This document shows positions 55,778-58,047 of a stretch of 64,000 nt of DNA, piece by piece. Numbering within the stretch: position 1 is the first letter of the stretch; every line of letters begins with the position of its first letter. Below the pieces are notes generated by a model. It saw only the letters and a program-made list of their open reading frames with translations, ran no database searches and was not told the origin of the DNA. The translations under genes and the position numbers were made by a program. The DNA is taken from assembly GCF_055900595.2 (NCBI RefSeq), contig NZ_CM148325.1; one strand, written 5' to 3'.

Positions 55778-58047
55778 GTAGAGTAAGAGGCAGGGCGTAG
55801 TCGGACTATTTCCCTGCCTCTCCTCCCCGAACCGGACATGCACCTTTCAGCGCATCCGGCTCTCCATTTAAACGCTGGCGAACGCCATTGCCACTTCTGT
55901 AAAGCGCGATGTATACGTCTTTCTGGTTTCCGTCCTCAGATAGGGATTACCTTCGGGTAGCCGCCAGCGGAACAGCTTCTTGCCTTGCCCCACCAACCGG
56001 TACAGTATTTCGCCGCTGAGCTTGCCGTGATTGGTTTTACCAAATAAAACCCACGTTTTGCTCTGACCCGGTTTCGGTGATTTACACCACCACCTCATCA
56101 GGGAAGCGATACTTGTACGGTATTTGCGGGCCAGCCAGTGAGCCAGCTTCTAGAACACGACACGGTCGATATAACTGAAGACTTTGGCCTTAAAATCAAC
56201 GAACTGATAGAACATGGCCCAGCCTTTCAGTTTTCGGTTGAGTTGTTTAGCCATATCGACTTTGCTTTCACTGTAGTTGCCTGATAACAGTGCTGTCAGC
56301 GATGCGGCGAAGTTTCTGGCTTTCTCCAGCGGGATCGTTGAGACCACTTGCATCTCGCCATAACGACTGCGTTTGCGAATGATCCTGTGCCCCAGAAAGA
56401 TAAAGCCGTCATTAACATGGGTGATTTTAGTCTTATCCATGTTCAGCCTGAGTTTCAGACTGCCTTCGAGCACACCCCGACACTCCTCCCTGATGGCTTC
56501 CGCCTGTGCTTTGGTGCCTTTGACGATGAGGACAAAATCATCGGCATAGCGGCAGTACGCCACCGCGGGTTTCCACTGCCAGTTTTCTCTGACCGCCGTA
56601 CTTCGGCCCCGTTGGATACTGTTATTCCAGTACCACCGATCTTTTCTTGCTTTCCCGCTCAGGTAGCGCTCATGCAGGTATTGATCGAACTCATTCAGCA
56701 TGATGTTCGACAATAGCGGCGATATAACACCGCCCTGTGGCACACCTTCACTGGCCGCCCGAAAGAGACCGACATCGATATGTCCCGCCTTGATGGTTTT
56801 CCACAGCAGAGTCATGAAACGTGCGTCACTGATCCTGCGGCGTACAGCCTTCATCAGCAGTCGATGATGTACGGTGTCGAAGTAACTGGACAGGTCGCCT
56901 TCAATCACCCAGCGTCCCCGGGTTTCACCGCAGTCGGTGAGCTGTAATTTCACCGTGCGGATCGAGTGGTGGACACTGCGCTCAGGCCGGAAGCCATATG
57001 AGAGCGTATGAAAATCACTCTCCCATATCGGCTCCATCGCCATCAGCATGGCCCGCTGAACAATACGATCCCGCAACGCGGGGATACCCAGTGGTCGCAG
57101 TTTGCCATTGCTTTTAGGGATGTAAACCCGCCTGGCGGGCAAGGGCTGGTAGTGGCCTGAGAGTAATTCATCCCTGAGGATTTGCAGCTCAACAGCCAGT
57201 CTGGCCTGTAGCATTGTTTTGTTCACGCCATCAACACCGGGGGTATTCGCCCCCTTTGATGAAAGCGTGATCCGCGCCGCTTCAGCCAGCCATTCTGGTT
57301 GTGTTATCAGACGCAGCAGCCGTTGAATCCGTAGGGACGGATCGGTGGCTGCCCATGTGGCAAGCTTGCGTTGCATTTCGCTGATTATCAAAGGTCTTCA
57401 CCTCGTTAGGTCAGTTAATTTACGTCGCAGACACATTCAAACTGCTTCCCTTCGCCATGTAATGGGCTTTCCCCATCGCGGACTACTACGGAAGCTCCGC
57501 CAGCCAGCGCGTCATCGGAGCCATGCCCCCTTAACATCCGTCGCTGACCTTCCCCGGTTTGCCTGACTGGACTCAGACATACTGAGGAGGCTGCCCGTCG
57601 CACTCTTTATCCTTGCTTGCCGCAAGTTGGCAGAAGTCAGCAACGCGAGCGTGATAGACGCTGCTGCCCCGGAGTTTCGCATACATGTCAAAACACCTTC
57701 GACCGGCAGTGCTTACGTATCACTGCCAGTTCCTCCTGCACGGCCTGTCAGATCACGTAGGCCGTGGTGACGTTTTCAACCCACAGAGGCGGATTAACGG
57801 GTTCATATTCTTAAGCCTTTCAGTACTTAACCTTGAGGATCATCTCGGCTTAGTGATCTCGCCTCAATCCCCGTTGTCAGCGGGTTACATCACCCTGCGG
57901 GCATGCCGCAGGTCACTGCCGCTCAGGTTCTCCACCGTCACACCCGGTGGGATTGTTGGGTTTCTCATCGTGAGTTACCGGTTCAATATTCCAGACAGAC
58001 TCGTGGTTCATTTGAGCGTCTATGCTCGCCCTGAACTCCGGGCACAC
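55778..58047 (-). mobile_element. Group II intron (about 2.27 kb) inserted in IS3 orfB
   Basis: 5' end GUGUGCCCGG after exon ...GACATCACGTACT; 3' end ...CTCTAC before exon TGCGTACCGATGAG; joining the exons restores IS3 ...GDITYLRTDEGW...; domain V GAGCCGGAUGCGCUGAAAGGUGCAUGUCCGGUUC near 55820-55860. Confidence 0.85.
56150..57391 (-). CDS. Group II intron-encoded reverse transcriptase/maturase; C-terminal part continues in another frame at 55868-56098
   Basis: 413 aa with RT motifs (GVISPLLSNIMLNEFD, YCRYADDFVLIV); the downstream 76-aa ORF in a different frame suggests a frameshift. Confidence 0.85.
   Translation of the reverse strand: MIISEMQRKLATWAATDPSLRIQRLLRLITQPEWLAEAARITLSSKGANTPGVDGVNKTMLQARLAVELQILRDELLSGHYQPLPARRVYIPKSNGKLRPLGIPALRDRIVQRAMLMAMEPIWESDFHTLSYGFRPERSVHHSIRTVKLQLTDCGETRGRWVIEGDLSSYFDTVHHRLLMKAVRRRISDARFMTLLWKTIKAGHIDVGLFRAASEGVPQGGVISPLLSNIMLNEFDQYLHERYLSGKARKDRWYWNNSIQRGRSTAVRENWQWKPAVAYCRYADDFVLIVKGTKAQAEAIREECRGVLEGSLKLRLNMDKTKITHVNDGFIFLGHRIIRKRSRYGEMQVVSTIPLEKARNFAASLTALLSGNYSESKVDMAKQLNRKLKGWAMFYQFVDFKAKVFSYIDRVVF

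Follow-up and report, generated by a model that had tools for sequence, protein, structure and literature searches.

The 64-kb window analyzed here, that is, a single stretch of 64,000 nucleotides from contig NZ_CM148325.1 (NCBI RefSeq assembly GCF_055900595.2), harbors on its minus strand a full-length group II intron lodged in the transposase gene of an IS3-family insertion sequence. The initial annotation had placed such an intron within an IS3 orfB gene, with boundaries resolved to the base, and had described its maturase gene as interrupted. The intron and its host are laid out as follows.

55296-58808, minus strand: ISEc16 (IS3 family), 1243 bp without the intron
58447-58746, minus strand: orfA of ISEc16, 99 aa
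58048-58450 and 55326-55777, minus strand: orfB of ISEc16, split, with the intron between its two parts
55778-58047, minus strand: group II intron E.c.I4, full length (2270 nt), starting with GUGUG and ending with CUAC

Intron boundaries, RNA domains and host element

In minus-strand orientation, the last bases of the 5′ exon are ...GACATCACGTACT (58048) and the first bases of the intron are GTGTGCCCGG (58047). The intron ends with ...CTCTAC (55778) and the exon picks up at TGCGTACCGATGAG (55777), the two junctions being ...GGGTGACATCACGTACT / GTGTGCCCGG ... CTTACTCTAC / TGCGTACCGATGAG.... On re-inspection, both of the GUGYG/AY termini are present, as GUGUG at 58047-58043 and as ...CUAC at 55778. 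When the 2270 nt are taken out in silico, an open orfB of 284 aa containing ...WVGDITYLRTDEGW... is restored, just as had been claimed. An uninterrupted ISEc16 copy found elsewhere (L004) reads GACATCACGTACTTGCGTACC, exactly the sequence joined in silico, and its empty site runs through GACATCACGTACT/TGCGTACC without a break. Because this empty copy reads continuously, it fixes both splice boundaries with single-base precision, and the intron does lie within orfB at the resolution originally stated.

The RNA itself offers further landmarks, two of which lie close to the 3′ splice site.

55829-55862, minus strand: domain V, 34 nt, with an AGC triad, a GAAA tetraloop and a 2-nt bulge (AU), from the RF00029 match and folding
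55780-55826, minus strand: domain VI, with a single bulged A at 55784 in the predicted fold

A scan of the whole window against Rfam at gathering thresholds returned one group II intron match, to RF00029 (domains V/VI), at 55778-55864 on the minus strand, with a score of 64 bits (gathering score of 40) and an E value of 2.8e-10 over the whole window; the covariance-model search proposed in the initial annotation thus came out in its favor. The domain V hairpin is GAGCCGGAUGCGCUGAAAGGUGCAUGUCCGGUUC (55862-55829). A canonical domain V is therefore present as described, but the distance of about 40 nt from the 3′ end fits only loosely, since we measured 51 nt. In the predicted fold of domain VI, this bulged A (55784) is a candidate branch point, at a distance of 7 nt from the end of the intron. 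Domains V and VI together fold at −48 kcal/mol (z = −5.9), which was equaled by none of 200 shuffled sequences. When 55700-58120 was scanned at a permissive threshold, the domain V/VI model and weak plastid domain V models were all that matched, with no match to the families of domains I-IV (D1-D4 included).

As for the host, ISEc16 stripped of the intron is 99.2% identical to the uninterrupted copy, which is annotated as “IS3-like element ISEc16 family transposase,” and the spliced OrfB scores 315.8 bits against the IS3 transposase model NF033516. The two flanking fragments called “IS3 family transposase” belong to a single ISEc16 orfB that the intron divides. The terminal inverted repeats of ISEc16 (TGATC...) are intact. 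In contrast, where the reference ISEc16 copy is flanked by a 3-bp target duplication (CTC/CTC), the flanks read TAC and CTC here, and the missing duplication points to an adjacent deletion or recombination.

ISEc16 itself is embedded in an older and diverged E.c.I4-like intron that lies on the plus strand and survives in four pieces.

55209-55295, plus strand: relic piece 1, corresponding to intron positions 32-118 (90.8% identity), abutting the right end of ISEc16
58809-58940, plus strand: relic piece 2, intron positions 332-464 (82% identity), abutting the left end of ISEc16
59937-59999, plus strand: relic piece 3, intron positions 483-545
59997-60090, plus strand: relic piece 4, intron positions 666-759, reaching the start of the reverse transcriptase (RT) ORF

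These pieces are 81-91% identical to E.c.I4. By coordinate mapping, piece 2 corresponds to “E.c.I4-tr2” of E. coli SMS-3-5, and at pieces 3 and 4 the PGAP annotation of the orthologues is “reverse transcriptase, internal stop, incomplete.” A gap of 213 nt in the relic coincides with the ISEc16 insertion, and a fragment of an IS481-like transposase gene lies between pieces 2 and 3. The relic is found downstream of an IS3-family orfB fragment (54876-55217) ending in ...EQVW, which means that the older intron had likewise homed into an IS3-family element. Apart from this relic, the 64-kb window contains no other copy of the intron. The pseudogene fragments in the surroundings (reverse transcriptase, integrase core, IS3) thus form a nested stack, in the order IS3-family element, old intron, ISEc16 and, finally, E.c.I4.

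The intron may have reached the locus in either of two ways. Rather than homing here, it could have arrived inside ISEc16 as a 3.5-kb composite of insertion sequence and intron, transposed by a transposase supplied in trans. We consider this possible though doubtful. It would agree with the intact ends and inverted repeats of ISEc16 and with the finding that ISEc16 devoid of the intron occupies this site in none of 5,426 complete E. coli genomes; homing in situ followed by fixation accounts for the same data equally well. Against transposition of a composite stand the lack of a 3-bp target duplication (TAC and CTC) and the loss of 213 nt of the relic, the same two features that obscure how ISEc16 was inserted.

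Identity and known copies

E.c.I4, the name given in the Zimmerly database to an intron of Escherichia and Shigella with the alias IntA, is the known element to which this intron corresponds. We are highly confident that it is an orthologous copy of E.c.I4 which sits at the usual homing site of the family, presumably through retrohoming, and whose maturase gene is now disabled. All 2270 nt of the window intron can be aligned without indels with the intact copy on pUTI89 (NC_007941 30449-32718); the two are separated by 35 substitutions, which makes them ~98.5% identical. The pUTI89 copy is E.c.I4-26 in Table S3 of Leclercq and Cordaux (2012; PMC3522654), and the naming rule for E.c.I4 is a nucleotide identity to the reference of >90% (PMC3522654, Table S2), well below what we found. 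This alignment with known E.c.I4 and the junction of uninterrupted ISEc16 were both checked, and both agree. The window copy resembles E.c.I4 in its length (2270 nt), in both ends, in the architecture of its intron-encoded protein (IEP; RT and X, without endonuclease) and in its homing position within an IS3-family orfB. ISEc16 is moreover a published host, since E.c.I4, an intron of ORF class A, inserts at specific positions in IS629, IS911, ISEc16 and ISEc31 (PMC3522654). What sets the window copy apart is that it belongs to a minor lineage, ~1.5% diverged from the common one, and that its IEP carries W409*.

The closest published relative is E.c.I4-25 of E. coli SMS-3-5 (NC_010498 3241200-3243470; 98% to the reference), which was catalogued in 2012 as full length, with its ORF disrupted, and as part of a genomic island (PMC3522654, text and Table S3). 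The SMS-3-5 region aligns with positions 52409-64000 of the window at 99.76% over 11.6 kb, and shares with it the island context (ibrAB-like genes, pseudogene fragments, relic intron, ISEc16 and sodC) as well as the TAG at codon 409. The two introns differ by three substitutions, at positions 1018, 1083 and 1800, and SMS-3-5 has a nearby IS2 insertion that the window lacks. Since context, alignment and TAG all agree, the intron of the window is the orthologue of the published disrupted copy. Intron, host and disrupted orthologue are all already known, and the element is an ordinary decaying mobile element.

Two further relatives are instructive. The ykfC copy of E. coli K-12 (E.c.I4-tr1) is 98.3% identical and sits at the same codon position in an IS2-like orfB; while it is cut at intron position 1764, with IS5 shortly downstream, the window copy is full length and carries a point nonsense mutation. 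RmInt1 of Sinorhizobium meliloti, a class D intron that homes into ISRm2011-2, is a more distant, mechanistic analogue. It likewise has an endonuclease-less IEP and, as its natural target, the transposase gene of an insertion sequence, while class (D rather than A), IS family and bacterial host all differ. Moreover, the mobility of RmInt1 has been proven experimentally, whereas the window copy is known here from its sequence.

The intron-encoded protein and its nonsense codon

The intron encodes an RT/maturase whose gene is disabled by a single codon.

55868-57376, minus strand: RT/maturase gene (TIGR04416, Pfam), 502 codons in intact copies and a pseudogene here
56150-56152, minus strand: in-frame TAG in place of the TGG of Trp-409, inside the maturase (GIIM) domain

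To score the IEP against protein models, Trp was put back at codon 409. The protein then matches the NCBIfam model for group II RT/maturases, TIGR04416, with 335.6 bits (cut-off of 300) and an E value of 3e-100. With this and the Rfam match (E = 2.8e-10), the intron is a feature far beyond chance. Pfam recognizes RVT_1 (aa 86-332) and GIIM (aa 356-426) in the IEP and nothing else, in particular no HNH endonuclease domain, and a YADD motif starts at aa 277.

The initial annotation had the maturase ORF stop at 56150 and continue in another frame. The stop was placed correctly, at 56150-56152; the change of frame was not borne out. A translation from 57391 to 55868 in one frame contains one internal stop, and the upstream and downstream ORFs share that frame, the ATG of the latter being at 56098 (56152 − 56098 = 54). 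A list of ORFs does show two separate ORFs, which is the one thing that speaks for a frameshift. We regard the chance of one as negligible, because the single-frame translation and the comparison with six other E.c.I4 copies already rule it out: all six have TGG at codon 409, the 2270 nt of the window copy align with intact copies without indels, and TGG to TAG is the only alteration of that codon. The Trp-409 codon was therefore lost through a single G-to-A change at position 56151 of the window (intron position 1897), so that the native ORF of the window ends after 408 aa and the last 94 residues are lost.

A single-base difference could in principle be an error of sequencing or assembly, or the TAG could be read through by amber suppression to yield a full-length IEP. 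It might be said for either view that, past the stop, only five codons (422, 460, 483, 486 and 502) distinguish the window from pUTI89. Both are nonetheless very improbable, and error is already ruled out by agreement between genomes. The same TAG is found in the orthologous SMS-3-5 copy and in L001, the closest of the best matches, which is one base off the window, and PGAP annotates the orthologous ltrA in both as pseudogenes with “internal stop.” Furthermore, at least 25 independently sequenced complete E. coli genomes, that is, all 25 of the best matches listed, carry a full-length copy with an identity of 100.0% (rounded), so that the TAG is not a sequencing error; in up to 61 records, the best match to the window intron reaches 99% or more. 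Since L001, SMS-3-5 and these genomes agree, the resequencing of the stop region that had been suggested is needless. As for suppression, amber suppressors are not known to be usual in wild strains of E. coli. The distribution of substitutions speaks against a full-length product as well. Relative to pUTI89, there are 8 synonymous and 2 nonsynonymous differences in codons 1-342, whereas in codons 343-502 nonsynonymous differences prevail by 8 to 1 (Fisher p = 0.005), and this excess fits relaxed constraint on the C-terminal part of the IEP.

Decay of the IEP is recurrent in E.c.I4, another copy (L009) having an independent stop at codon 29. A full-length IEP of 502 aa is not encoded in the window, and by its sequence the copy is best described as E.c.I4 by descent and pseudogenized. 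In sum, all of the tests that we ran, with the covariance model, with models of protein families, against the empty site and against the annotation of orthologues, supported the core of the earlier reading, namely, an intron in orfB with exact boundaries and a disabled maturase. The significance of the locus hardly extends beyond correct annotation, with ltrA to be recorded as a nonsense pseudogene instead of a frameshift or a sequencing error.

History, possible rescue in trans and target site

The history that we favor would begin with an E.c.I4 ribonucleoprotein recognizing its DNA target by base pairing between EBS and IBS. The intron RNA would then have inserted itself by reverse splicing, with T(58048) and T(55777) on either side, and the IEP would have copied it into DNA. 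Since this IEP is without an endonuclease domain, priming would presumably have come from the replication fork, as in the retrohoming of endonuclease-less introns such as RmInt1. Later, a G-to-A transition would have turned Trp-409 into a TAG inside the maturase (X/GIIM) domain, at the cost of the last 94 residues, and the orthologous copy would have been passed on vertically or with the island.

In LtrA, splicing depends on domain X, and binding of the DNA target depends on the C-terminal region. By analogy, because the TAG removes the last 94 residues, the window copy should have neither a full-length maturase/RT nor autonomous mobility, and should be neither self-sufficient in splicing nor mobile. 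The suggestion that it is mobility-defective is thus upheld, at the level of probability, for a gene that carries an in-frame stop. Without a maturase in trans, the intron probably does not splice; judging from its sequence, the copy is most likely non-autonomous, with the ISEc16 transposase left split. The RT domain and its YADD motif are themselves intact, and a loss of function is what we infer.

Since the RT domain, the YADD motif and the parts of the ribozyme that were checked look intact, this intron could still be spliced or mobilized by a maturase that a different E.c.I4 copy supplies within the cell. The RNA features in question are helix Ia, domain V and domain VI with its bulged A, which look intact in the predicted folds. 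Among the 15 non-coding substitutions of the 5′ part, pairing in the minimum free energy (MFE) structure is reported solely for helix 21-33/386-401, because the structure was predicted on the sequence of the window itself, which biases other MFE pairs toward it. Substitutions 22, 27, 30 and 401 of this lineage all fall in that helix, and each of them turns a G-U pair of the common variant into a Watson-Crick pair. Domain V holds one change only, C2210U, by which the bulge goes from AC to AU, and AU is also found in the consensus of the plastid domain V models of Rfam. With these changes, the ribozyme may still be competent if a maturase comes in trans.

Taken further, this would make the copy a functional non-autonomous intron, that is, an intact ribozyme spliced and perhaps mobilized by the maturase/RT of other copies, so that the ISEc16 transposase could be expressed. 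We think this rather unlikely, even though helix Ia and domains V and VI are preserved, with G-U pairs changed to Watson-Crick pairs, and potential helpers are frequent. Intact E.c.I4 copies are common in E. coli: in 1873 of the 5426 genomes, 80% or more of the intron is covered at one place, and some carriers of the 100.0% variant have up to 7 matching places. Set against this is the behavior of group II IEPs (LtrA, RmInt1), which work chiefly in cis, on their own coding RNA. In addition, the window holds no further intron copy beyond the relic, and SMS-3-5 offers no helper, since this one disrupted full-length copy is accompanied there by fragments only (PMC3522654). Slightly less probable still is the stronger version, in which the lineage has been kept as a working non-autonomous ribozyme, its helices under selection, spliced or mobilized in trans by the IEP of intact copies. 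If this were true, the presence of a further intron copy would decide whether the host ISEc16 transposase is expressed. We therefore retain the reading of a presumably retrohomed and now decaying copy, in keeping with the “extinction dynamics” published for introns of Enterobacteriales.

Recognition of the target can be sketched from three short segments, for which our assignments are tentative.

58048-58059, minus strand: 5′ exon target, with candidate IBS2 (ACATCA) and candidate IBS1 (CGTACT), in the GDITY codons of orfB
57712-57717, minus strand: candidate EBS1 (CGUAAG), intron positions 331-336, in the loop of hairpin 320-346
57887-57892, minus strand: candidate EBS2 (UGAUGU), intron positions 156-161

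The hairpin presenting the candidate EBS1 is predicted to have 8 bp and to lie ~50 nt ahead of the 3′ strand of the closing helix of domain I. The candidate EBS2 can form six of six Watson-Crick pairs with positions −12 to −7 of the ISEc16 exon, and five of six pairs with both the IS629-like site (two of them G-U) and the IS2-like site. The candidate EBS1 could pair with all of the last 6 nt of an IS629-like exon, and with 4/6 of those of ISEc16 and 4/6 of the IS2-like exon. Because pairing at the ISEc16 site itself is 4/6, the EBS-IBS model is not secure. Two alternatives for EBS1 were rejected, AGUAC (intron positions 221-225), a 5-mer expected ~0.65 times by chance and with poor pairing to IS629-type sites, and UACGUGAU (intron positions 289-296), which pairs 8/8 with exon positions −10 to −3 and stops short of position −1. 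The candidate pairings would fit an intron that tolerates several related targets.

The usual site of the family is the conserved W-x-G-D-I/V-T-Y region of the IS3-family transposase gene, and the intron is inserted after the first base of the codon next to the Tyr codon of GD(I/V/F)TY, as it is in IS629-like and IS2-like elements. This is the same codon position in three IS3-family hosts (...ACATCA CGTACT/T in ISEc16, ...ATTTTA CTTACG/T in IS629-like and ...ATGTGA CCTATA/ in IS2/ISEc52-like elements), and the locus is a clean example of a mobile group II intron that targets IS3-family transposase genes in their conserved core and decays after homing.

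Nested insertions around the intron-bearing ISEc16

The group II intron E.c.I4 lies within orfB of ISEc16, an IS3-family element which is itself surrounded by pieces of an older, diverged E.c.I4-like intron and by further remnants.

54876-55217: a further IS3-family orfB fragment, upstream of the relic
55209-55295, 58809-58940 and 59937-60090, plus strand: older E.c.I4-like intron relic, 81-91% identical to E.c.I4

ISEc16 and an IS481-like fragment each interrupt the relic, which is on the strand opposite to the E.c.I4 copy within ISEc16. Together, these layers form a four-level nest of IS, intron, IS and intron. 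Only the middle piece of the relic (132 nt) was included in the 2012 catalogue of E.c.I4 copies, under the name E.c.I4-tr2 (Leclercq & Cordaux 2012, PMC3522654).

As for the ends of the ISEc16 copy (55296-58808), no 3-bp target duplication was found, the flanks being TAC on one side versus CTC on the other, and the relic around the element has lost 213 nt. This combination suggests that a neighbouring stretch was deleted or that IS copies recombined with each other. The 5' untranslated region of this ISEc16 carries a 1-nt deletion relative to the reference element.

Two genes border the IS and intron remnants, one on either side; both are intact, and everything in between is pseudogenised.

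52771-53295, plus strand: extra periplasmic Cu/Zn superoxide dismutase gene (sodC)
60503-61729, plus strand: IbrA-like PAPS-reductase gene, adjoined in orthologous loci by an ibrB-like gene

Recombination and decay of E.c.I4 copies in other genomes

Among E.c.I4-bearing loci of other E. coli genomes, some copies combine a 5' IS629-like exon with a 3' IS2-like exon, and others display the reciprocal mix (L003 and L009 versus L008), which indicates homologous recombination between intron copies housed in different IS elements. The copy at L009 (NZ_CP015912.1) has, independently, a premature stop at codon 29 of the intron-encoded reverse transcriptase/maturase; nonsense decay of this protein has therefore occurred more than once.

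An IS10-bracketed virulence segment

18597-19925 and 36112-37440: two IS10 copies, mutually inverted, outside ends pointing outward

The two IS10 copies, which differ by four mismatches and each have a separate 9-bp target duplication (CACCCAGTA and TGCAGAGCG), bracket a segment of ~16 kb. As annotated in matching genomes, this segment carries aerobactin (iucA) and a YadA-like adhesin gene. The closest genomes cover just 86-88% of 17000-39000 and, since the missing part roughly equals two IS10 copies in length, they probably lack both. The arrangement would be a candidate for a new composite transposon, Tn10-like and enclosing virulence genes.

Two Hfq-binding sRNA families have strong Rfam matches inside the E. 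coli island of the window.

12468-12590, minus strand: isrC (145 bits)
50749-50870, plus strand: STnc490 (134 bits)
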